64,000 nucleotides of DNA from positions 1 to 64,000 of IMG/VR virus record IMGVR_UViG_3300019487_000024; one strand, 5' to 3'. The notes below the pieces were generated by a model. The model saw only the letters and a program-made list of their open reading frames with translations, was not told where the DNA came from and made no database searches. The position numbers and the translations under genes are program-made. Positions 2,999 to 37,788 of the stretch are shown piece by piece. Position 1 is the first letter of the stretch; every line of letters begins with the position of its first letter. This DNA is from a virus.

Positions 2999-4021
2999 AT
3001 GGGATTCACAGTATATGCATCTACAGATTCCGGTGCCCCGACATTGAATGGGCAAACGGGGTCTTTGTTGTCCGTGCTTGATGCCGTATTGGTTAATGGT
3101 TACGGAGCCAAAATTGCTGCGGGATGGACGAAGCCATTTCCTAATACAAGTAGCTATGGAACATTTCGACTTGGAAATGGTTCCACTGGTTCTTTATTTG
3201 TCAATGATGCTGGTTCTGGAAGTGCGTCCGGGGCAGAAGCTTTGATGACTGGATGGAGTTACATGTCGGCGATTACCAATGGTGCTGTGACGGGAAGCAA
3301 TCCATTTCCAAGTTATCAAGCTCTTGCTATTGGTCCCGGTGCTGGTGGTGCGGCTGGAGCCGTTGTACTGAGAAAAAGTACGGTTACTACTGCCGTTGCA
3401 AGATCGTGGATTGCTTTTGCGGATAGTGCATCGCTTTATTTTTTTACTAAACCCGCCGACCCTGCTACATTTGCAAATAATCGTTGGTCAGCATTTTTCT
3501 TTGGAGATATTTATTCTTTGAGAAGTGGTTCGGTAGATTCGTCTCGTTGTATGATTATTGGGCGAATCAATCCAAGTTCATCGGCTGTAGCAGATGATCG
3601 CATGGATGTTACGAATACGGTTGCTCTTGGATTGAATGTCAGTGTAACCGGACATTTTTTGGCAAATTTTTTCGGCGGAACATCAAGCAGCGTTCTTGTA
3701 GGAAAGTTTGGAGACTTGAATAAGTCTGCAAATAATAGCATATTAGTTGGTTCTGTTCCTTTCTTAAACACTTGTGACAATTCATTACACATAAGTCCAT
3801 TGTTCTTGATGGATGCGGCTTTTGGTACTGTTCGTGGTAGAATGAGAGGATTTTATCACATTCTTCATGCTTCGGAAAGTGTTAGTGATGGGCAAGTATT
3901 TACAGGTTCAGCAACCTTTGGGGATTATCAAAATAGAAGCTTCCAAGTCGTCGCAAGTTCGGCGAATGCTGCTATGTATTTAATAGAAACGAGTGACACG
4001 TTGGAGACCAACGTTCCATAA
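2999..4021 (+). CDS. Tail-appendage/virion structural protein, paralog 4
   Basis: Nearest to paralog 3 (WIAFADSASLY, SAFFFGDIYSLRSGS.DSSRCMIIGR shared). Confidence 0.6.
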   Translation: MGFTVYASTDSGAPTLNGQTGSLLSVLDAVLVNGYGAKIAAGWTKPFPNTSSYGTFRLGNGSTGSLFVNDAGSGSASGAEALMTGWSYMSAITNGAVTGSNPFPSYQALAIGPGAGGAAGAVVLRKSTVTTAVARSWIAFADSASLYFFTKPADPATFANNRWSAFFFGDIYSLRSGSVDSSRCMIIGRINPSSSAVADDRMDVTNTVALGLNVSVTGHFLANFFGGTSSSVLVGKFGDLNKSANNSILVGSVPFLNTCDNSLHISPLFLMDAAFGTVRGRMRGFYHILHASESVSDGQVFTGSATFGDYQNRSFQVVASSANAAMYLIETSDTLETNVP

Positions 4022-4718: not shown

Positions 4719-5012
4719 ATGAGCGAACCATTAAAGATTTCGGCAGAAGAACTTGCAGAAATAAAATTACTTCAGTCGAAGTTTCAGGAAAGTATTTATA
4801 AGTTGGGAAATCTCCAAATTGAGAAAATGGAGCTTGACCGACTCGTCACAGAATTCGTTGAACGGGAGAAACGGCTCAAGGAAGAGTGGACCTCTTTACA
4901 AAAGCTCGAACAGGGTTTAATGGACAAGATTGTGCAGAGGTACGGAGAGGGAAATCTCAATATGGCGGATGGAACTTTCATTCCTTCTGCCACAGTTCCA
5001 AAAGTTGTTTGA
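4719..5012 (+). CDS. Small coiled-coil protein
   Basis: Probable start ATG 4719 after GGAAAG; heptad-rich, ends with a ..YG.G.LN..DGTF motif. Confidence 0.6.
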   Translation: MSEPLKISAEELAEIKLLQSKFQESIYKLGNLQIEKMELDRLVTEFVEREKRLKEEWTSLQKLEQGLMDKIVQRYGEGNLNMADGTFIPSATVPKVV

Positions 5013-5112: not shown

Positions 5113-8100
5113 ATGCCAATCACAGAAGGTGGAAGATTTACTCCAAACGACCGCATTGTAAGTCCGGGTGTATTCACTCGTGAAAATGACCTCTCAGGCA
5201 TCGCTCAAGGCGTTGCTGACATTGGAGGCGTTGTTGTAGCCCCATTTGCCAAAGGTCCGGGATTTTCCCCTACTCTGGTCAGAAGTGTCGCTGAACTCGA
5301 AAGCAAATTCGGCATCGCCGATGGAACCCTCTATGGACCATATACGTCCAAGCAGTACCTCCAAGAAAAAGGATTTGTAACTGTTTGCCGTGTTGGTGCT
5401 CTTACTGGTTATCACCAGAAGTATCCGTGGGTCATTTGGGCTGAAAAGGGCACATGGCTCCGAGCACCAGATTCCGCCTCCATTGTAACTTCCGAATCAA
5501 TTCTCTCCCAAGATGGACTCACCTTCTCCACCGCTGGGCAGAACACAAGTGCTTCGGTTCATACTTACACTGGCTCGGTCAATTTTGTAAGCCAATCCGT
5601 AACGTTGGTTCTTTCCGGTAGCACTTTGTATAATGGTGCAACCGTTGAAGGAAACATCAGCGGAAAATTCAACTTCACAGGTTCTTTGAACCTCTCCACG
5701 GCTTCTGCAACTTCTGCATCTATTCTCCAAGCAATCTTTGATGCAGGTCTATTCACTGGAAGCGTAGCTCAAGCTCTGTTCTCAAGCACTCAGAAACCAT
5801 TTGACACGGTTGTCTGGACTGGTGGATTCGTCAGTCAATCATTGGATGCTTGTGGAAACCTTGAACTCAATGTTGGTGGTGTTCTTACGGGAAGCATTGG
5901 AAACTACGATGGAAACTTCACTAGCGGAAGTGGAACGTTTGACCCATGCACCGGACAATGGACCTTCAGCGGAACCGAGTATAAGGTTCTCGCAGTCCTT
6001 TCCGACACTCAAAACGCAACGATCAACGCACAGCTTCAGGCTCCCGGTTTCTTGGGGTCTGTTCAAAGCTATGCTCCATCTCCTTCTGGCAGCGATGCTG
6101 TAGGAGTGGCATTTGACCTTGCACTCAGCCAATCCGAAGACGGTGGATATGGTATCTACAATTTCTCGCTTGACCCGGATAGCGTCAAATACATCACGAA
6201 TGTATTCGGACACGACCCACGAGCAGGAGACCCAGAAACCCATGCCGCTGGAACAAAGATTGAAGCTGCATATCTCTACAAGATTTTTGAAGATGACATC
6301 GCATCTATCGCAAATGATCCATCTTCATGGAGAATTCATGGTGATGCAATGCCTTCTGGCTCTTGGAACGGAGAACCTCTCCAATTCACTGACCAGTACT
6401 CGCTGGATTTGACCAACGGAGATTCTTCGTTTGGCTTGACCAACGCCGCAACTCCTTGGGTTGTGTCTCAGCAAATCGCACCGTTCAATGGTGGAAACCC
6501 AACCCGTTTCCCACTGTTCCGCTTGTTGACTCTGAGCGACGGTACGAACATGAACACGTCCTACAAGATTGAAATCTCCAACGTCCGTCTTGCCGGAACT
6601 GTGGCAGGAAGCGATTGGGGAACTTTCACTCTGACGGTTCGTGACTACAGCGACACCGACAAGAAGCCAAAGATTTTGGAACAATTCAACAATCTTAACC
6701 TTGACCCAACCTCTGCGAACTTCGTTGCTCGCCGTATTGGTGACAGGTACAATTACATCCGTTTCGATGGAAAGATCATTGAATTCGGAACTTACGACAA
6801 CCTCAGCAACTATGTTCGTGTTGAGGCAGCAGATAATCCATATCCAAAGTCTTCGGTCCCATACGGCTTTGAAGCTTATGTGACTCCGGTCAACGGAGCA
6901 CTCGGACAGCAATGTCACGCAGTTGGATATACAAAAGCATCTGTCTATGGATTGTTCCCCGGCAAGTATCCATCTGGTGTGGACTTCAATGGTCCTCCGG
7001 TTGGTGCTGATGCTCAACTATCCGCACTGTATCCAACTTCTTCGGCAGGAGTTGAGCATTGGAGAGACAATCTCCAGTACTTCGCACCACTGCCAGTGGA
7101 TGCAACTATCGGAAACAACGTAGTATTTGCTCTTGACGAAGAAATCAGTGCAAACGGTGTTGGAACGGGGTCGTTCATTGCTTCAAGCAATGTGGTTCCA
7201 TCAACATACGATGCATCGAAAGAAACCACCTACGTCAAGATGCGTAAGTTCGTCTTCGGCTTCCAAGGTGGTTTTGACGGTCAATCGCCAGCTATTCCGC
7301 TGAACACAGGTGCAGACATTACTGCGGGCAACACCCAAGGTTTGAACTGTGCTTCGAGCACAACGGCAGGATCGATTGCTTACAATCAGTGTATTGGTGC
7401 CCTCGGCAATGCAGACGAGTTTGACATCAATCTCATTGTGACTCCGGGTATCATCTACTCGTTGCACTCCTACGTGACTATCATCACTCTGGAAATGTGC
7501 GAACGCCGTGGTGATTGTTTCTACATCCCCGATCTGTATCAAGACGATGGTAATCCAACGGCTGGTCAGATCGATGAAGTGGTCAATCTTGCCAAGGAAT
7601 TCGACACAAGCTATGCAGGAACATACTATCCTTGGATCAAGATCAAGGACACGAATATCAACCAAATCGTGACCGTTCCTCCATCCGTTGTGATGCCAGC
7701 AGTTTACGCCGCTAACGACCGTGTTGCGGGTGAATGGTGGGCAGCAGCAGGCTTGAACCGTGGTGGTATCCCACAGGCAGTTCAAGTAACTGACCGCACA
7801 ACTCACGTTGAGCGTGATTCGCTCTACGAAGGTCGTGTTAACCCAATCGCAGCATTCCCCGGACAAGGAATTGTGGCATGGGGACAGAAGACCTTGCAGG
7901 TTGAATCTTCGGCACTTGACCGTATCAACGTTCGTAGGCTGTTGATTGAAATCAAGAAGTTCTTCGCTTCTACGGCTAGGTTCTTGGTGTTTGAACAAAA
8001 CACTGCGGCAACCCGCAACAAGTTCTTGGCAATTGTGAATCCTTATCTGGAAAGCGTGCAGCAACGTAGTGGTCTGTATGCCTTCCAAGTCGTGATGGAC

Positions 8101-29761: not shown

Positions 29762-30610
29762 ATGGCAATTAACGTCCAAAAACTCGCAGATCGCCTTCGT
29801 GAATTCGAAGATGGTCAAAAATCCTCAGAATTTTCCAAACTCCTATGGAAACCCAAAGAAGGCACCCAAACAGTCAGAATTGTTCCGTACAAGTTCAATC
29901 CTGATTCCCCGTTCATCGAATTGCAGTTCTACTACAATCTCGGTGGAAAGCATTACTTGGCTCCCGTGACCTTCGGCAAGCCCGACCCGATCCAAGAAGT
30001 CATTGAGACCTTGCGTTCCAGCGGAAGCAACGAAGAGAAGGAAATCGCCAAGAAACTCCAAGCAACCCCTCGCACTTACGTTCCAGTGTTGGTTCGTGGT
30101 GAAGAAGAACAAGGTGTTCGCTTTTGGGGCTTCGGCGTCCAAGTCTATAAGCAGCTTTTGAAGCTGATGACCAATGCAAATTGGGGCGACATTACTTCCT
30201 TTACGGAAGGGCACGACATTGAAATCGAATTCAAGAAGGTCAGTGCAAAGAAAAATGTCAAGACGGGACAAGCCTTCCCTGAGACAATCATCACTCCAAT
30301 TCCAACCAAGACACCAGTCGTCAATCCGACTCGCCGTGATTTGATGGAAAAGGTCAAGGAACAGACGGACATTCTGAAAATCTTCCCTCTCAAGTCGTAT
30401 GACGAATTGAAGGAAGTCGTTCAGAAGTGGCTCAACCCTGAAGACGCTGCTGTGGAAGCTCCCGCAGAAGATCAGGCTCAGTCAACCGCAGCCCAAACCA
30501 CGGCTCCTGCGGCTGCAACTCCTCCAACTCAATCCTCGGCTGCTGGTGCTCCAGTTGCCGCAGGCGGCAATCTTGCCGACGAGTTCGAGAAGTTCTTCCA
30601 AACCAAGTAA
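29762..30610 (+). CDS. Single-stranded DNA-binding protein (T4 gp32-like)
   Basis: WKPKEG...VRIVP, FGKPDPI, GVRFWGFG..VY, GDIT...GHD; acidic/aromatic tail DEFEKFF. Confidence 0.85.
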   Translation: MAINVQKLADRLREFEDGQKSSEFSKLLWKPKEGTQTVRIVPYKFNPDSPFIELQFYYNLGGKHYLAPVTFGKPDPIQEVIETLRSSGSNEEKEIAKKLQATPRTYVPVLVRGEEEQGVRFWGFGVQVYKQLLKLMTNANWGDITSFTEGHDIEIEFKKVSAKKNVKTGQAFPETIITPIPTKTPVVNPTRRDLMEKVKEQTDILKIFPLKSYDELKEVVQKWLNPEDAAVEAPAEDQAQSTAAQTTAPAAATPPTQSSAAGAPVAAGGNLADEFEKFFQTK

Positions 30611-30625
30611 TTGGTGAACTCAAAC

Positions 30626-30666
30626 ACGCTTGGGGTATGCCGGACATTCCGGTGTACCCCAAGTGT
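30626..30666 (+). promoter_or_regulatory. 19-bp RNA hairpin between SSB and recombinase
   Basis: ACGCTTGGGGTATGCCGGA-cat-TCCGGTGTACCCCAAGTGT, three G-U pairs, no U tract. Confidence 0.65.
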
Positions 30667-30691
30667 AACCAAAATTTAATCCTTTCCTCCT

Positions 30692-31861
30692 ATGGCAAAA
30701 AAGACATCTAAACACGTAGAGAGTGATGCCCAAGTTGAACGTGACGACTTGGCATTGCTTCTCCAAAAAGAACTCAACAAATCCCAAAAAGACGGCAGCA
30801 AAGTCTCTTACTTTTTGGACGAAGGCGAAAATCCGTGGGACATCCTTGAGTGGGTTTCCACAGGTTCTACGCTTTTGGACTTAGCAGTTTCTAATCGCCC
30901 GCACGGAGGACTTCCTGTTGGTCGTATGATCGAATTGAGCGGTCTTGAAGGCACAGGAAAATCGCTTATCTGCGGTCATTTGATTGCAGAAACTCAAAAG
31001 AAGGGTGGACTTTCAGTATTTTTTGATTCGGAATCCGCCGTGGACAAAGCATATTGGACTGCTCTTGGTGTGGATGTACGCAGCGTGAACTGCGTGCCTT
31101 TCACAACTCTTGAAGAGTTGTTCAACAAATTGGAACTTTGTATCGGAGCATTCCGAAAAGCATCCAAAGATCGTCTTTTGACTATCTTCGTTGACTCCAT
31201 TGCCCAAGCATCCGTTGAAAAAGAAATGGAATCTGAGCACGGTGTTGATGGATACAACACGGGCAAGTCCATTATCATCAGCAAGGCTATGAGAAAGATT
31301 ACCAATCTCATTGCCAAACAACGCATTCTGTTGGTGTTCACCAATCAACTCCGCTACAACATGAACGCCGGACCTTTCGGCGATAAGTGGATTACTCCCG
31401 GTGGAAAAGCACTTCCATTTTCTTGTTCCGTTCGCATTCGTCTCGCCAATCTTGGTAAACTTACCAAGGGAGATGAAGTGATCGGAATGAAGGCTCAAAC
31501 ACAAGTCATCAAGAATCGTTGCGGTCCAAACTACAGGACTGCGGCATTTGAGATTCACTACGACTCAGGAATTCAAGACCTTTCAAGTTGGGTTAAGTAC
31601 ATGAAAGAACATGGACTTGTCAATGGCGACGGTCATGGATATGACTACAAACGTGCCGATGGCAGTGAAATCACCTTCAAGACCGACAAGTTTGTGGAAT
31701 TGGTAAATACCGATCCTGTGTTCAAAGAGGAAGTGTATCAAGCCATTTGCAACAACTATGTCATGAAGTATCGTGACCCCAACAGCAAGATTGTTGAGGA
31801 CGTGGTAGAAGTTGAGGGTGAGAATGATGACATTACGAAAAATTCCGTCAAGGAATCGTAA
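30692..31861 (+). CDS. recA: RecA/UvsX-like recombinase
   Basis: STGS..LD, GGLPVGR, Walker A GLEGTGKS, FVDSIA, FTNQLR, TPGGKAL, KNR. Confidence 0.92.
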   Translation: MAKKTSKHVESDAQVERDDLALLLQKELNKSQKDGSKVSYFLDEGENPWDILEWVSTGSTLLDLAVSNRPHGGLPVGRMIELSGLEGTGKSLICGHLIAETQKKGGLSVFFDSESAVDKAYWTALGVDVRSVNCVPFTTLEELFNKLELCIGAFRKASKDRLLTIFVDSIAQASVEKEMESEHGVDGYNTGKSIIISKAMRKITNLIAKQRILLVFTNQLRYNMNAGPFGDKWITPGGKALPFSCSVRIRLANLGKLTKGDEVIGMKAQTQVIKNRCGPNYRTAAFEIHYDSGIQDLSSWVKYMKEHGLVNGDGHGYDYKRADGSEITFKTDKFVELVNTDPVFKEEVYQAICNNYVMKYRDPNSKIVEDVVEVEGENDDITKNSVKES

Positions 31862-31863
31862 TC

Positions 31864-31983
31864 ATGAACCTTAGTCCCGAAGAAAGAAGCCGTCTTGCGA
31901 ATATCCTAAAAAACAAGGGTAATCAACTCCAAGATGCACATAAGAATTGGTCTCGTTTGACTAACTCCGATATTCTGATATGA
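31864..31983 (+). pseudogene. Orphaned 39-codon N-terminus of the 5'-3' exonuclease gene
   Basis: MNLSPEERSRLANILKNKGNQLQDAHKNWSRLTNSDILI* aligns with the N-terminus of 33829..34905; its stop overlaps the HEG ATG. Confidence 0.75.
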
Positions 31984-32912
31984 AGTCTATAGACTTAACT
32001 GGATATAAATATGGAAGGTGGACGGTTATTTCTAAGTCCGATAGTAAGCGGTGGAATTGTATTTGTGAATGTGGTTCGGAAAAACAAGTAAGTAGGTCAA
32101 ATCTACGAAGTGGCAAGTCTGTTTCTTGTGGATGTTTTGCTCGCCAGAAATTGAGTGAACGAATGCAAGGAAATACTCTTGGTCTTATAGATTTAAGTGG
32201 CACAAAAATTGGACGAATTTCCATACTTCGTAGGATAACAAAAAACGAGTCTGAATTCAGAACATTAAAAGGTCGAAATTCACAATATCTGTGTAGATGT
32301 GACTGCGGTAAAAAATATGTTTGCAGTGCTCATGTTCTAACCAGCGGTCGAGCAATAAGTTGTGGTTGTTATAATCGAGAAGTTCTTAAATCTCATACAC
32401 AAAGCAATCATCCGGGGTGGAAAGGATATAAAAAACTTTCTGGCAATTACATAACGGAAATTAAAAAAGGTGCGGTTTCTCGTGGGTTAAAATATGATGT
32501 AAGTAAGGAATATCTATATGGTTTGTTTGTATTTCAAAATGAACGATGTGCATTGTCGGGAATTCAACTATCATTAGAATTTTGTCGAGGAAAACGACAG
32601 ACAGCATCATTGGACCGCATAGACTCTTCCAAAGGATATGTTGAAGGAAATGTTCAATGGGTTCATAAAGATGTTAATAAAATGAAGCAAGATTTGCCTC
32701 AGAATACTTTTTTGAATTGGTGTAAACTTATCGAAGAAAATATGAAAACAATAAAGCGAGTAGTTAATGGTGTCCTTGTTGAAATATGTGAAAATGGGGA
32801 TGTATTTGTAGATAATTCGGTTCTCCCTGATTATGGCGGGACAGAGGAAAATCTAAATAAAGTGTGTCGGGAAATTGGTGAAAAAAATTATTCAAACCAA
32901 AGATTTGTCTGA
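31980..32912 (+). mobile_element. HNH-type homing endonuclease
   Basis: DLTG..YGRW...C.C.CG...SCGC repeats; ASLDRIDSSKGYVEGNVQWVHKDVNKMK. Confidence 0.85.
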
Positions 32913-32953
32913 ACATATCGCAGTGAAATAATTACACTTTTCTACGATGTTTC

Positions 32954-32980
32954 TCCGCTAATCCGCTAATCCGCTAATCC
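32954..32980. repeat. Tandem 8-mer (TCCGCTAA)x3+
   Basis: TCCGCTAA TCCGCTAA TCCGCTAA TCC between two HEGs. Confidence 0.85.
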
Positions 32981-32995
32981 ACTATTTATTAGTGT

Positions 32996-33841
32996 ATGAT
33001 TGATGAACAAAAAATAGTGGATGAAATGTATCGGAAATTTATTTCTGATGAATCTATCATTGGATTTGAAGGATTGTTTCAACAGTTTGGAATTAAAAGT
33101 GGTAGAAAAAAAAAATAGAATTCGAGCGTTAATATATGATAAACATGGTAAAGATAATCTCATTACCATATATCGTAGTCGGTTAGCAAAATCCGCTCAT
33201 AAAAACAGAACTGCTGATGACTATGTAATTTTAGCCGATCAGCGTTGTAGAATGATTGAGGGAATACGGCAAAGTTGGAAAAATGCAAATGAACGAAAAA
33301 AACAAGCCCAACAATTGATGGTTAATTATTGCCATTCAAAAGCATGGTCAACAGAAACTAATGAGAAGAGAATACAATCTCGTAAGGACGGGGTAGGATG
33401 GAATAAACATTCGGATTCCACTCGGCAAAAGATTTCTTCCGTTTTGAAACAAAAATGGAAAGATGGATGTTTTGATAATCGTCGTCCGACTATAAAGAGT
33501 AAGGGTCAACTTGAATTGTGTTCTTTGTTACAAAAATTAGAATTAGATGTTATTGAAGAATTTCGAGTTAACAGTAAACCGTTTGATGCTTGTTTACCGA
33601 AAAAAAAAAATTACTTTTTGAATTTAATGGAACTTACTGGCATTTAGACCCAAGAATATATGAGCCACGATATTGGGATAAGTTTCGAAAACAATTTGCA
33701 TTCCAGATATGGCGAAAAGATAATCTTAAAAATATGGAAGCCCATAGGAATGGATATAAGGTCATTACTATATGGCAAAAGGATTGGGATGAATGTCAGA
33801 ATAAAGAAGTATATCTGAAAGAATTGATATGCAACATCTGA
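32996..33841 (+). pseudogene. Homing endonuclease (NUMOD3-like plus DUF559/Vsr-like) broken at two poly-A runs
   Basis: ATG 32996 after TATTTATT; frame changes at A10 (33106-33115) and A11 (33600-33610); C-terminal FEFNGTYWH...GYKVITIWQKDW. Confidence 0.7.
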
Positions 33842-34905
33842 ATAATACCGAGAAGACAAATTTGTATTCCATTTTCAAAAAAATGGGAACAAAAACTATG
33901 GATGACCATCGTCGGAATACGAATAGTAACATCTTGATAGTGGACGGAACCAATACATTTTTAAGATGTTTTATGGCAAATCCGGCAATGGATGAAAATG
34001 GAAATCACACTGGTGGCGTAGTCGGCTTTCTCAAATCAGTCGGCTACGCCATCAAACTTTTGGCTCCCACTCGCTGCGTTATCATTTTTGATGGTGTCGG
34101 CGGCTCTTTCAAACGTCGCCAAATTTATCCCAATTACAAAGAGAAGCGTAAGGGTCGTATTCGTCTCAATCGTGCATACGAAGACATGTCCGACATGACG
34201 ACTGAAGAGGAAAGTTGTATCAAGCAATACCTTCGCCTTACGAAATATCTTCAAGTCCTTCCCGTCAACATTCTTTCTATAGACCACGTTGAGGCAGATG
34301 ACGTAATTGCTTATCTTGCAACGGAACACTTCAAAGATTCTCGGAAAGTTTTTATCATGTCGTCGGATAAGGACTTTTTACAGCTATCAACCGAAAAGAT
34401 TTCCGTGTATTCTCCTACGAAGAAGCGTATTTATGGACCGGCAGAAGTCTTGGCAGACTATCAAATTCATCCCAATAACTTTGTGATGTTTCGTGCAATG
34501 GACGGAGACGACTCAGACAACATTGATGGAATTGAAGGAGCAGGACCAAAGACGGTCGTCAAGCACTTCCCGTGGTTGAACGAAGACAAGGTTCATACCA
34601 TTGACGAGATTGTGAATCACGCAACGAATTTGAGAAACAAATACAAAGTGTGTGATCGGATTGCAGAAGGTAAGACTCTTCTTGAGAGAAATTACGCATT
34701 GATGCAATTGAAAGAAACGATGTTGACCACAACGGCTCAACTTCATTGCAACGATTGTTTGGAGACGGCTAAAATTCCACGACTGGATCGTGGAGCATTC
34801 TTCAAGCTCGTCCGAGAAGATTTGATTGATGGAAACTTGCCAAACCATACAAGCTGGATCAACGAAGTGTTCTCTCCACTTGATATGGTAACAAGAACGG
34901 AATGA
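33829..34905 (+). CDS. 5'-3' exonuclease / T4 RNase H-like flap nuclease
   Basis: IVDGTN, FDG, YKEKR, EADDVI, SSDKDFLQL, GDDSDNIDGIEGAGPKT. Confidence 0.92.
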   Translation: MQHLNNTEKTNLYSIFKKMGTKTMDDHRRNTNSNILIVDGTNTFLRCFMANPAMDENGNHTGGVVGFLKSVGYAIKLLAPTRCVIIFDGVGGSFKRRQIYPNYKEKRKGRIRLNRAYEDMSDMTTEEESCIKQYLRLTKYLQVLPVNILSIDHVEADDVIAYLATEHFKDSRKVFIMSSDKDFLQLSTEKISVYSPTKKRIYGPAEVLADYQIHPNNFVMFRAMDGDDSDNIDGIEGAGPKTVVKHFPWLNEDKVHTIDEIVNHATNLRNKYKVCDRIAEGKTLLERNYALMQLKETMLTTTAQLHCNDCLETAKIPRLDRGAFFKLVREDLIDGNLPNHTSWINEVFSPLDMVTRTE

Positions 34906-34906
34906 T

Positions 34907-35224
34907 ATGAAAAAGTTCAAGCTATTGCGGATCGGAAAGTGCTACCTTAACCGTGAGGGTGATATGGTCGTTGCACTTGTCAAAGCCCACAAAAATCCCG
35001 GATTCAAAACACAGAGCTATCAGTTCGTGGGCAGTTTTGTCAACAAATTCTTTCCAGTGTTCAAATTCCAACTTTTGTCCCGCATTGTTCCCAACGACGG
35101 AAGCTGGACTGAAGTGGACACCCACATGTTCAAAGTAGTGCAAGCACTTCATAATTCTGGACACGTTGTCAAACTTCCCGACCCAAACTCTCCAAGCGAT
35201 TTGCCTGTGATTGCAAAATACTGA
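34907..35224 (+). CDS. Hypothetical protein
   Basis: Tight operon spacing. Confidence 0.55.
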   Translation: MKKFKLLRIGKCYLNREGDMVVALVKAHKNPGFKTQSYQFVGSFVNKFFPVFKFQLLSRIVPNDGSWTEVDTHMFKVVQALHNSGHVVKLPDPNSPSDLPVIAKY

Positions 35225-35225
35225 T

Positions 35226-36053
35226 ATGAGATTCATTCGTTATCATAGCTGCAACGAGAACACCTTCAGAGACAAGGTAGTTGGTTCCATTCTATTTGCC
35301 GGAAGAAACTGGCTCCACATTGGAAAGAGGACGATCAATGCCGAATGGTCGTTCTTTCATAAGTGTCGTAGCCATCCTGCCTTGAAAATGGAATTTGGTG
35401 GTGGTGATGGAGACGATGGATTGATGTTCCATGTTGCCATTCCATATCTTTTTTCCATTTTCCTCTCTGTGGATTGTGTATTTGGAAAACTTTTTTGGGG
35501 AGATGTTGAAACCCGTGAGACAGGAATTGCCTTCCACAACGGAAGTTTCTGGTTTTACCCGTTTTCAAAAACAATGTCATGGTCAAGCCGTGACCCGTGG
35601 TGGAGAAAGTCTCATTCATTCTCCCCCGCAGAATTTATCTGTGGACGCAACAAGTACTCGGAAGAGAACGACCAAGGATGGCAACCTATTGAAATAACTA
35701 TGCCCGAAGGAAAATACAAGGGCAAGTTGCGTCTCTACACAGGTGCGTGGAAGAATCGCTTCCGCACAATGAGAATTTCACGAGCAGAAATTGACATGGA
35801 AGAAGGAATCCCCTTTCCCGGAAAGGGCGAGAGTTCTTGGGATTGTGGCGAAGACGCTACGTATGGAATGACATGTCCTGCCCGTGATGAAGCGGAGGCA
35901 ATTGCAGCAATGATTGAATCTGTGCTGTCTCGTCGCCGCAAATATGGTTCCCGCAATTGCTTGTTCAATTACAAGCCCGTGGAACGTCATGTCCGAAGTG
36001 CTGTACATGAAAAAGCCTCAGAAGCATGTTGTGCTTCCGAGGCTTCTTCGTGA
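35226..36053 (+). CDS. Hypothetical protein
   Basis: Start 35226; Trp-rich; GKGESSWDCG.DA motif. Confidence 0.6.
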   Translation: MRFIRYHSCNENTFRDKVVGSILFAGRNWLHIGKRTINAEWSFFHKCRSHPALKMEFGGGDGDDGLMFHVAIPYLFSIFLSVDCVFGKLFWGDVETRETGIAFHNGSFWFYPFSKTMSWSSRDPWWRKSHSFSPAEFICGRNKYSEENDQGWQPIEITMPEGKYKGKLRLYTGAWKNRFRTMRISRAEIDMEEGIPFPGKGESSWDCGEDATYGMTCPARDEAEAIAAMIESVLSRRRKYGSRNCLFNYKPVERHVRSAVHEKASEACCASEASS

Positions 36054-37115: not shown

Positions 37116-37788
37116 GAAACTTGAAAAATCAAAAATCAAAAAATTGTATCAGGAAGAAAAAATGGATACGGCTGAGATTGCTAATTTACTAAACGTGAGT
37201 CAAAAAACGGTATGGTATTTCATGGTTAAAAATGGAATACCCAGAAGAAACAAAAAACAAACGGGAGCAAGCGATCTTATTGGTAAACAAATCGGAGAGT
37301 TATTTGTTATTCGTCGAGCCGAAGAAGTAGAAACAAACCAAGGAACAATGTGGGAATGCAAATGTTCGTGTGGAAATACAAAGATAATTCGAGGAAGTAG
37401 TTTGACAACGAAAAACGCAACCTCATGTGGATGTAAATGGAGGCGAGCGTCCTATGAAGAAATATCGGGGAGTTACTGGTGGGGGTTAAAGCGAAATGCC
37501 CAAAAGCGAAAGTTTGCGTTTGAAGTGACGCAACAAGAAATGTGGGAGTTGTTCTTAAAACAAAACAGACAATGTGCGTTGAGTGATGCTGAAATAGGGT
37601 TTGGAAAAGGGTTGAATAGAAATGGGCAAACGGCATCATTAGACAGGATCGATTCTTCTAAAGGTTATGTCATTGGAAATGTAAGATGGGTTCATAAAAC
37701 GGTCAATCAAATGAAGTGGGATTTGTCTGACGAATCCTTTTTTCAATGGGTTCATAGAGTTGCTATGAAGTATGATATTGGAAGATAA
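37114..37788 (+). mobile_element. HNH-type homing endonuclease with N-terminal HTH
   Basis: EIANLLNVSQKTV; WECKCSCG..SCGC; ASLDRIDSSKGY..GNVRWVHK.VN.MK (paralog of 31980). Confidence 0.85.

Follow-up and report, generated by a model that had tools for sequence, protein, structure and literature searches.

A displaced exonuclease gene start beside a homing-endonuclease cassette in a metagenomic phage genome

Homing endonucleases must enter essential, conserved sequence without killing the host gene, and the solutions known to us are introns, inteins, split-protein tails and the bypass of T4 gene 60. A locus in a metagenomic virus record raises the question of whether a mobile endonuclease cassette can instead bring along its own copy of the gene start that it displaces, and what is left behind when the displacement is imperfect. 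The stretch analyzed here (“the window”) is the first 64 kb (positions 1–64,000) of the 100,409-nt IMG/VR record IMGVR_UViG_3300019487_000024, which is estimated to be 28% complete. Between its recA/UvsX-like recombinase gene and its 5′-3′ exonuclease/flap endonuclease gene lie a 39-codon open reading frame (ORF), called the stub below, and two homing-endonuclease genes, HEG1 and HEG2. The stub resembles the start of an exonuclease gene, and the exonuclease gene downstream has a complete and different start of its own. The locus appears to document another phage solution, in which the cassette carries its own copy of the gene start. Related contigs are designated by L-numbers (26 of them were fetched first), and proteins found by searching a collection of 5.8 billion proteins by P-numbers.

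The stub (31864–31983; plus strand, as are the recombinase gene, the insert and all its genes, and the exonuclease gene) follows directly on the recombinase gene (30692–31861; PF00154, E 1.2e-44), and tblastn, blastn and a phylogenetic tree all point to it as the displaced native start of the exonuclease gene. It is 77% identical to the real N-terminus of the L005 exonuclease (tblastn, E 3e-16) and 54–64% identical to the N-termini of L007, L008, L029, L014 and L015, all of which continue directly into the VDG motif, and it resembles the window's present exonuclease N-terminus weakly (∼33% identity). Three types of N-terminus occur among the fetched relatives. The stub is of type A (MNL...TNSDILI-VDG), and in the N-terminus tree it lies within the type A clade at 95/90 support. 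It ends at ILI, with the catalytic Asp of VDG the second residue past the break; it retains the native start and an AAGGA ribosome-binding site, and its TGA stop codon arises at the junction. In the insert-free relatives L008/L009, L012 and L016–L019 the gap between the recA stop and the exonuclease start is 3–9 nt. An earlier note, written from the nucleotide sequence of the window, had aligned the stub with the exonuclease start, placed its break two residues before the catalytic Asp, and predicted relatives free of endonuclease genes in which the stub-type N-terminus runs on into VDG. The alignment stands, and the predicted arrangement exists in L008/L009, L005 and others. These comparisons confirm the stub as the native flap exonuclease (FEN) start, apparently left as an orphan after cassette entry.

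The stub also carries the signature of a used gene. Compared with L005 it has pN 0.16 and pS 0.70, the lowest ratio among all type A N-terminus pairs, and so it was selected coding sequence for nearly all of that divergence. No second copy of an N-terminus is present at any of the 134 other exonuclease loci, and a search for stub-like small ORFs among the 5.8 billion proteins returned the window's own only. The stub seems to be no part of the usual design of the cassette and is best read as an accident of aberrant repair, since every other cassette member replaces the N-terminus cleanly. It would thus be a rare natural fossil of a cassette invasion, and it offers a caution for annotation: small ORFs behind recA-like genes can be gene-start fossils.

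The extent of the insertion can be read from L005. By blastn, window 31863–31980 matches L005 5997–6114 and window 33935–34905 matches L005 6110–7080, that is, the nucleotide match reaches the last sense codon of the stub (ATA, 31978–31980) and resumes at 33935. The insert therefore spans 31981–33939, 1959 nt or 653 codons, between codon 39 (ATA) and the GTG of VDG, as the alignment and the GC profile also indicate. GC content is 0.30–0.37 from ∼31900 to ∼33950 vs 0.44–0.50 on either flank. Only 5 nt (TGATA) are common to both junctions.

The exonuclease gene downstream (33829–34905, 358 aa) appears to be a working gene with a foreign 5′ end and a native body. Its ORF is full length and colinear with those of 26 relatives; it matches PF02739 at 110.9 bits (cut-off 34.3) and PF01367 at 39.0 bits, just under the cut-off of 40, and no other gene of the 100-kb record matches PF02739. 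The nearest exonucleases of cultured phages are 39% identical. It had been proposed that the cassette splits a replication gene; its native 5′ end has indeed been displaced, but the working gene remains in one piece. The sequence GTG GAC GGA ACC AAT ACA is uninterrupted in the window, P0002 (see below) is likewise uninterrupted, and neither has the stop-led gap that other lineages have at this point. In a tree of exonuclease bodies that of the window is sister to L005 at 100/97. When P0002 is included the topology is (window,(L005,P0002)) at 96/96, with L005 and P0002 together at 100/99, and every other member of that body clade (100/99) has a type A N-terminus contiguous with VDG. The separate phylogenies that the earlier note had called for place the stub among the type A starts and the body beside L005.

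The present N-terminus has a different affiliation. Its first 37 codons (33829–33939) form a long orphan branch on the N-terminus tree and have a GC content of 0.33–0.36, and the exonuclease gene begins within HEG2, sharing 13 nt with its 3′ end, an overlap common to all cassettes of the HEG2 family; the new start had been described earlier as AT-rich and overlapping the second endonuclease gene, and it is both. Its assignment to a “type C” N-terminus on the basis of the LYSIF motif was considered and dropped, as the tree gave it no support, and it is treated here as a separate W type. A scan of JGI metagenomes with the foreign N-terminus found no W-type N-terminus, and a search of the 5.8 billion proteins with exonuclease residues 1–45 found a single relative, P0002. 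The P0002 N-terminus is 76% identical to that of the window and has the same VDGTNTFLRCFM block, and its body is 90% identical to that of L005. The residues FLRCFM are common to the window and P0002, where L005 and the remaining clade have FIRCWS. A protein search with HEG2 found P0005, an intact 282-aa protein 77% identical to the window HEG2 (sublineage W), and P0002 and P0005 are both listed with a 63,269-nt longest contig and the same sources. L005 has neither the W-type N-terminus nor HEG2-W, so the two co-occur twice, on backbones whose nearest kin have neither. Because the W-type N-terminus co-occurs with HEG2-W and, across other clades, the N-terminus diverges with the endonuclease and not with the body, the replacement start is read as cargo of the HEG2 cassette. 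The suggestion that the cassette supplies a replacement N-terminus is in this way upheld by the P0002/P0005 linkage; a HEG-less relative with this MQHL-type N-terminus, which would have spoken against it, was not found, the sole other carrier being P0002, listed with the endonuclease P0005. The further idea that the segment was “recoded” does not hold, since the nine differences in 21 nt over TNS-ILI amount to the saturated synonymous divergence seen between any two lineages (pS 0.7–0.9).

P0002 and L005 differ only up to codon 49, which places the right end of the cassette-derived tract near 33975, in agreement with the step in GC content and with the nucleotide matches, among which L005 ranks first only from codon 58 or so onward. 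It is likely, then, that the foreign tract goes on past the 37 codons of the insert to about codon 49, its probable remainder being codons 38–49 (VDGTNTFLRCFM, 33940–33975, the right boundary being approximate). In the window native codons 40–51 have been lost and codons 1 to ∼49 are derived from the cassette. The 5′ ends of replication genes can have a history that differs from that of their bodies. A distant exonuclease clade (L258–L263 and L265/L266, all metagenome contigs) natively has VDGMNTFLRCFMAI, with the same FLRCFM block as the W cassette, and two of its members also have a gap; this clade is a possible source lineage of the W replacement block. The GAC codon for the catalytic Asp was tried as a marker of the cassette and is weak, being present in 15 of 15 gap alleles and also in 27 of 100 contiguous alleles. 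An inverted repeat, ACATCTTGA...TAAGATGT at 33928–33970, could fold into a hairpin where the foreign N-terminus meets VDG (fold z = −1.8).

HEG2 (32996–33841) has a NUMOD3-like region and a Vsr/I-Bth0305I-like (PD-(D/E)XK) endonuclease region, and it lies in three reading frames that are joined at an A10 run (33108–33117) and an A11 run (33601–33611). It is colinear with the intact 266–283-aa homologs P0005–P0008 and has no in-frame stops. Both runs encode Lys-Lys-Lys, the intact homologs are in frame there, and A9 or A12 in place of either the A10 or the A11 would restore the frame; the run lengths are the same in the second assembly described below. As it is interrupted only at these two runs, HEG2 should be either a very young pseudogene or a gene dependent on slippage. 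In the first case the runs would be recent slippage mutations; in the second, slippage during transcription could yield a small amount of full-length product at these sites. An apparent internal deletion of ∼35–41 aa, considered as a sign of decay, was rejected since it is common to the intact P0005–P0008. The earlier description of a cassette with two endonuclease genes is right as to number and as to HEG1, which is intact, and needs amending for HEG2, which is frameshifted twice. An IMG/VR scan with the window's HEG2 piece yielded no donor, and no cultured phage was found to carry the HEG2 family.

Family matches of HEG2 in Pfam (PF18741 and NUMOD3) are both below threshold. In an AlphaFold model of an intact relative (pLDDT 72), the C-terminal domain matches the catalytic domain of I-Bth0305I (3r3p, TMt 0.75) and Vsr (1cw0/1vsr). 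I-Bth0305I itself is encoded within an intron of a phage recA gene. The HEG2 family thus resembles the I-Bth0305I/Hef-type Vsr-like (EDxHD) enzymes in the predicted fold of its C-terminal domain and in its neighborhood of phage recombination and replication genes, but it differs in being free-standing, in its NUMOD3-like repeats, in having a putative exonuclease target and in a sequence similarity below the family thresholds. By sequence and by structural model, HEG1 and HEG2 would each belong to a recognized nuclease family of homing endonucleases (HNH and I-Bth0305I/Vsr-like, respectively).

HEG1 (31980–32912) is an intact HNH homing-endonuclease gene of 310 aa (phrog_374, E 1.6e-34). Its ATG (31980–31982) overlaps the TGA of the stub (31981–31983) as ATGA, an overlap that had been pointed out earlier and is present in the sequence. 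HEG1 lacks a separate Shine-Dalgarno sequence, whereas the native AAGGA in front of the stub is retained, and translational coupling of HEG1 to the stub is plausible for that reason. The IMG/VR scan found no donor for HEG1, its nearest relative there being only 37% identical. In L014 and L021, too, an HNH gene comes immediately after recA, and in L014 its start again forms an ATGA with the stop of the gene before it. Two more HNH paralogs of HEG1 are present in the same genome, at 37249–37758 (40% identical) and at record positions 100031–100372 (31% identical). Between HEG1 and HEG2 is a spacer with three tandem copies of the 8-nt unit CCGCTAAT (32954–32984), and an imperfect hairpin near this repeat (32977–33022) covers the HEG2 start.

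HEG2 homologs lie between recA and the exonuclease gene in several other lineages. L114 and L162 have flanks that are 100% and 99.55% identical, and between these flanks a 1094-nt cassette, consisting of HEG2, a foreign 41-codon N-terminus and a 5-nt gap, replaces 128 nt of spacer and native N-terminus. L023 and L010 show a similar pattern of presence and absence at 96–98% identity, and such variation at the same locus between close relatives extends to the window's own clade, where L008/L009 are insert-free. The HEG2 gene and the N-terminal peptide are far more alike than the exonuclease bodies that follow them, with pS of 0.05 for both vs 0.60 for the body between L156 and L157, and 0.19 (HEG2) and 0.00 (N-terminal peptide) vs 0.81 between L112 and L114; the start of the gene therefore travels together with the endonuclease. 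On both the body tree and the recA tree the cassette type is polyphyletic. L169 (2283–2500) has kept a foreign N-terminus and a 5-nt gap and has lost the HEG2 gene, and L183/L184 (1468–2520) have an intact HEG2 homolog next to an uninterrupted exonuclease gene.

In the other HEG2 sublineages the exonuclease ORF is interrupted right after VDG-x by a stop-led insert of 5–6 nt that insert-free relatives do not have. The variants are TAGCT, TAGCG, TAGTG, TGACTN, TAAAAT and TAACGC (for example ACG-TAGCT-AAT, TTG-TAGTG-AAT, CTT-TGACTC-AAT, ACC-TAAAAT-AAC and CTC-TAACGC-AAC), and the loci include L023 (∼6112–6125), L025 (∼2794), L026 (∼6115), L112–L132 (in L114 at ∼4996–5008) and L133 (∼3303–3314), and further L156, L157, L160/L161, L249, L264 and L265/L266. 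The gap and HEG2 are both present at 56 loci and both absent at 97, with HEG2 alone at 2 and the gap alone at 1, these loci not being independent of one another. The stop-led gap looks like a minimal version of a gene 60-like gap that would be crossed by a ribosomal hop or by termination-reinitiation. Take-off and landing codons match in most of the gap variants but not in all, so that a hop fits most of them; a single hop rule for all gaps was rejected, as it fails at ACC-TAA-AAT (L249) and CTC-TAA-CGC (L265). Restart codons behind the gaps are not universal either. Natural stop-hops are without record in a 2016 review.

A history can be built from the relationships established above, by homology and by trees, for four sequences (stub, foreign N-terminus, body and HEG2), together with the break points and the linkage of N-terminus and HEG2; its cleavage site, one-sided repair, donor gene order, translational coupling and immunity of the new allele are the conjectural steps. 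In the ancestral state, a type A exonuclease start would have lain directly downstream of recA. A free-standing cassette, composed of HEG2 (sublineage W) and a cassette-borne copy of exonuclease codons 1 to ∼49, would then have entered. In normal homing the endonuclease would cut the insert-free allele in the conserved VDG-x-N-T-F-I-R-C-W block, and repair from the donor, guided by homologous recA sequence to the left and homologous exonuclease body sequence to the right, would cleanly replace the native N-terminus. In the window the right side alone would have been repaired by homology, with a crossover near codon 49–57. The left break end may have been trimmed to native codon 39 and then joined without homology (at most 1–2 nt) to the donor exactly at the HEG1 ATG, with HEG1 upstream of HEG2 in the donor. 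The product would be the arrangement now present, namely native ribosome-binding site, 39-codon stub, ATGA, HEG1, HEG2, foreign N-terminus and native body. The exonuclease would now be made from the foreign start, and the stub probably only delivers ribosomes to HEG1 by termination-reinitiation. The event was probably recent, because the stub keeps the signature of purified coding sequence and HEG2 differs from its intact relatives only by two poly-A length changes. A recA-HEG1-HEG2 order in the donor is plausible because HNH genes sit just behind recA in L014 and L021. We give this account as a whole (invasion by a cassette, a rule of clean replacement, and a one-sided illegitimate repair that left the stub) a probability of about three in four.

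Several points weigh against it. The donor order recA-HEG1-HEG2 has not been observed anywhere, and the nearest relative of HEG1 is the distant 37% one mentioned above. The adjacency of P0002 and P0005 rests on the 63,269-nt longest contig and the identical sources that the listing gives for both. A junction exactly at the HEG1 ATG would be a striking coincidence for random end joining, and the break could be assigned to either of the two endonucleases. Finally, between the window and the phage of P0002, HEG2-W is 77% and the N-terminus 76% identical vs 81% for the bodies, values that also fit an old, vertically inherited cassette that was later lost in L005.

This last point is the starting place of the best surviving alternative, an inherited architecture in which the cassette and the stub were already present in the common ancestor of the window phage, L005 and the phage of P0002. 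L005 would have gone back to a type A gene later, its insert removed when it recombined with a phage lacking the insert or when the stub recombined with the duplicated TNS-ILI codons; the window would have kept the stub for ribosome traffic to HEG1. One gain and one loss are the same number of steps as two gains, and the identities of HEG2-W and the N-terminus are indeed close to that of the bodies. But the pN/pS ratio of stub and L005, the lowest of the type A pairs, is not expected if the stub had been non-coding, or merely kept open, for half of the path; no stub-like ORF besides the window's was found in the protein collection that holds the contig of P0002; and HEG2 has only two homopolymer indels. 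We consider such an old origin unlikely. An origin independent of the endonucleases is less probable again: here illegitimate or unequal recombination of co-infecting phages, or a tandem duplication of the gene's 5′ end followed by divergence, would have made the locus, and the endonuclease genes would be passengers. T4-like phages recombine heavily, and the left junction is essentially without homology, as such an origin would have it. It does not explain why the break lies 12 nt from the site of the putatively protective gap in other sublineages and inside the block that the cassette replaces, or why the downstream N-terminus overlaps the 3′ end of HEG2 as in every cassette; for a duplication, the downstream N-terminus is in addition too diverged (33% vs 77%) for an event younger than the split of the window and L005.

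It is very improbable that the 1959 nt are a group I or group II intron with endonuclease genes, from which the stub would be spliced to the body. In favor of splicing, stub and exonuclease ORF share one reading frame, and the insert length is divisible by three. But Rfam gives no match at E ≤ 1 on either strand of 31500–34400, no rotation of TGATA at the boundaries gives an exon-terminal U with an intron-terminal G, there is no GUGYG...AY signature at the boundaries, a complete alternative N-terminus with its own ATG is present, and the same endonuclease family is free-standing in all relatives. The insertion was called splice-free at the outset, and the boundaries and Rfam agree with this. 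Least credible of all is an assembly chimera of two strains, one with the type A gene and one with the cassette: the record is a metagenome contig of modest depth (8.4x), but the probable source run, a cave metagenome, has been assembled a second time and independently, and the resulting Logan contig (19,147 nt, depth 8.4) agrees with the record throughout 31500–34300 (2.8 kb) and shows neither alternative joints nor loose ends where the insert meets its flanks. The junctions share 5 nt, far less than any assembler's k-mer, and a second cave sample yielded two 151-nt unitigs that are exact matches to HEG1 and HEG2.

Returning to cassette invasion with one-sided repair, its parts have precedents in other systems. 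Mobile ORFs have made gene hybrids in fungal mitochondria, in Allomyces macrogynus atp6 and in Glomus atp6, atp9, cox2 and nad3 (PMC3630166). There too an endonuclease ORF travels with a foreign gene terminus that is put to use, and the native terminus persists beside it, out of use; sequence comparison ties this remnant to close relatives, whereas the inserted terminus falls into another cluster. All the parts of the Allomyces atp6 type are present in the window: the endonuclease ORF, a foreign terminus in frame with the native core, and a displaced native terminus nearby. The window is their mirror image, in that the 5′/N-terminal end has been replaced and the remnant is upstream with its own start and ribosome-binding site; its host is a double-stranded DNA phage and its target a flap exonuclease.

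The phage T4 MobA/gene 60 system, with an HNH endonuclease, a homologous replacement region (homR) and a 50-nt bypass (bioRxiv 10.1101/2022.08.31.505936), is similar in other respects. Its insertion site, too, is a block of a replication protein that is both conserved and catalytic. A short piece of the target is deleted, and in its place the element provides a diverged homologous copy that overlaps the endonuclease ORF out of frame; different endonuclease families serve in this role, and the endonuclease is often pseudogenized after insertion. The sister sublineages of the window's cassette share with it a stop-led coding gap at the target site. In the window, by contrast, the target is not split into two working polypeptides, there are no CTE/NTE tails and there is no coding gap; the whole N-terminus including the start codon has been replaced, and the native remnant survives.

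One-sided homing with illegitimate, microhomology-mediated repair of the break has been demonstrated experimentally in T4, where one-sided junctions formed when only one exon offered homology (Parker et al. 1999, as summarized in the review PMC2988022). The free-standing T-even endonucleases SegF, SegG and MobE lie between conserved genes and cut within a neighbor, with co-conversion of flanking markers, as is proposed for the cassette discussed here; homology on one side again gives junctions at microhomologies (PMC2988022). The T-even one-sided products came from engineered crosses, whereas the window would hold a natural product, fixed in a wild phage, with a duplicated gene start. If so, natural invasion can proceed by one-sided non-homologous repair, until now known from engineered T4 crosses. 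The preserved native start would fix the break in the recipient to within ∼36 nt of the catalytic Asp codon, and the locus gives a concrete candidate target site for an uncharacterized family of Vsr-like endonucleases. The window contributes a gap-free sublineage and a preserved native start, and with the other sublineages it offers a natural comparison of putatively gap-protected and substitution-protected alleles. A still wider reading joins all of this. The stub would be the footprint of an in vivo break by an undescribed Vsr-like family that has the catalytic VDG-x-NTF block as its target and in every case supplies the gene start itself; the new allele would be protected by the gap in most sublineages (by hop or restart) or by the FLRCFM replacement block in W, where the clade has FIRCWS; and an unrelated HNH gene would have captured the orphaned high-efficiency start. 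This combination is possible, but we hold it only tentatively and would not bet on it as a whole.

The remaining features of the locus are minor. A gp32-like gene (29762–30610) lies upstream of the recombinase gene. A repeat search of the locus found, beyond the 8-nt tandem unit, short repeats at chance level only, and a scan of 30400–35300 for promoters and terminators gave counts not above those of shuffled sequence. RNA folds at the junction and at the gaps of the relatives had no common structure (z-scores −2.6 to +1.4), and among the INPHARED phages no DNA relative of the window was found. Across the relatives, genes of several kinds have landed in the spacer that separates recA from the exonuclease gene. 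In L005 (5585–6001) it is occupied by a small HNH gene that overlaps the exonuclease start as ATGA, in L014 (2043–3055) by two tandem endonuclease genes and in L011 (5072–6052) by a DNA methyltransferase-like gene; L021 (2868–4189) is a further example, and L020/L028 (∼5220–6020) have another type of ORF of 248–266 aa. The recA/UvsX gene is itself interrupted in three relatives (L019:3535–5090, L027:1118–1605 and L156:180–1494). The breaks in L019 and L027 are at about residue 87, near the P-loop, with 0.5–1.5 kb inserted; that in L156 is further downstream, at about residues 235–250, and its insert contains a HEG2-like fragment. In this phage group the recA gene thus appears to form a second hotspot, open to introns, inteins or endonuclease genes.

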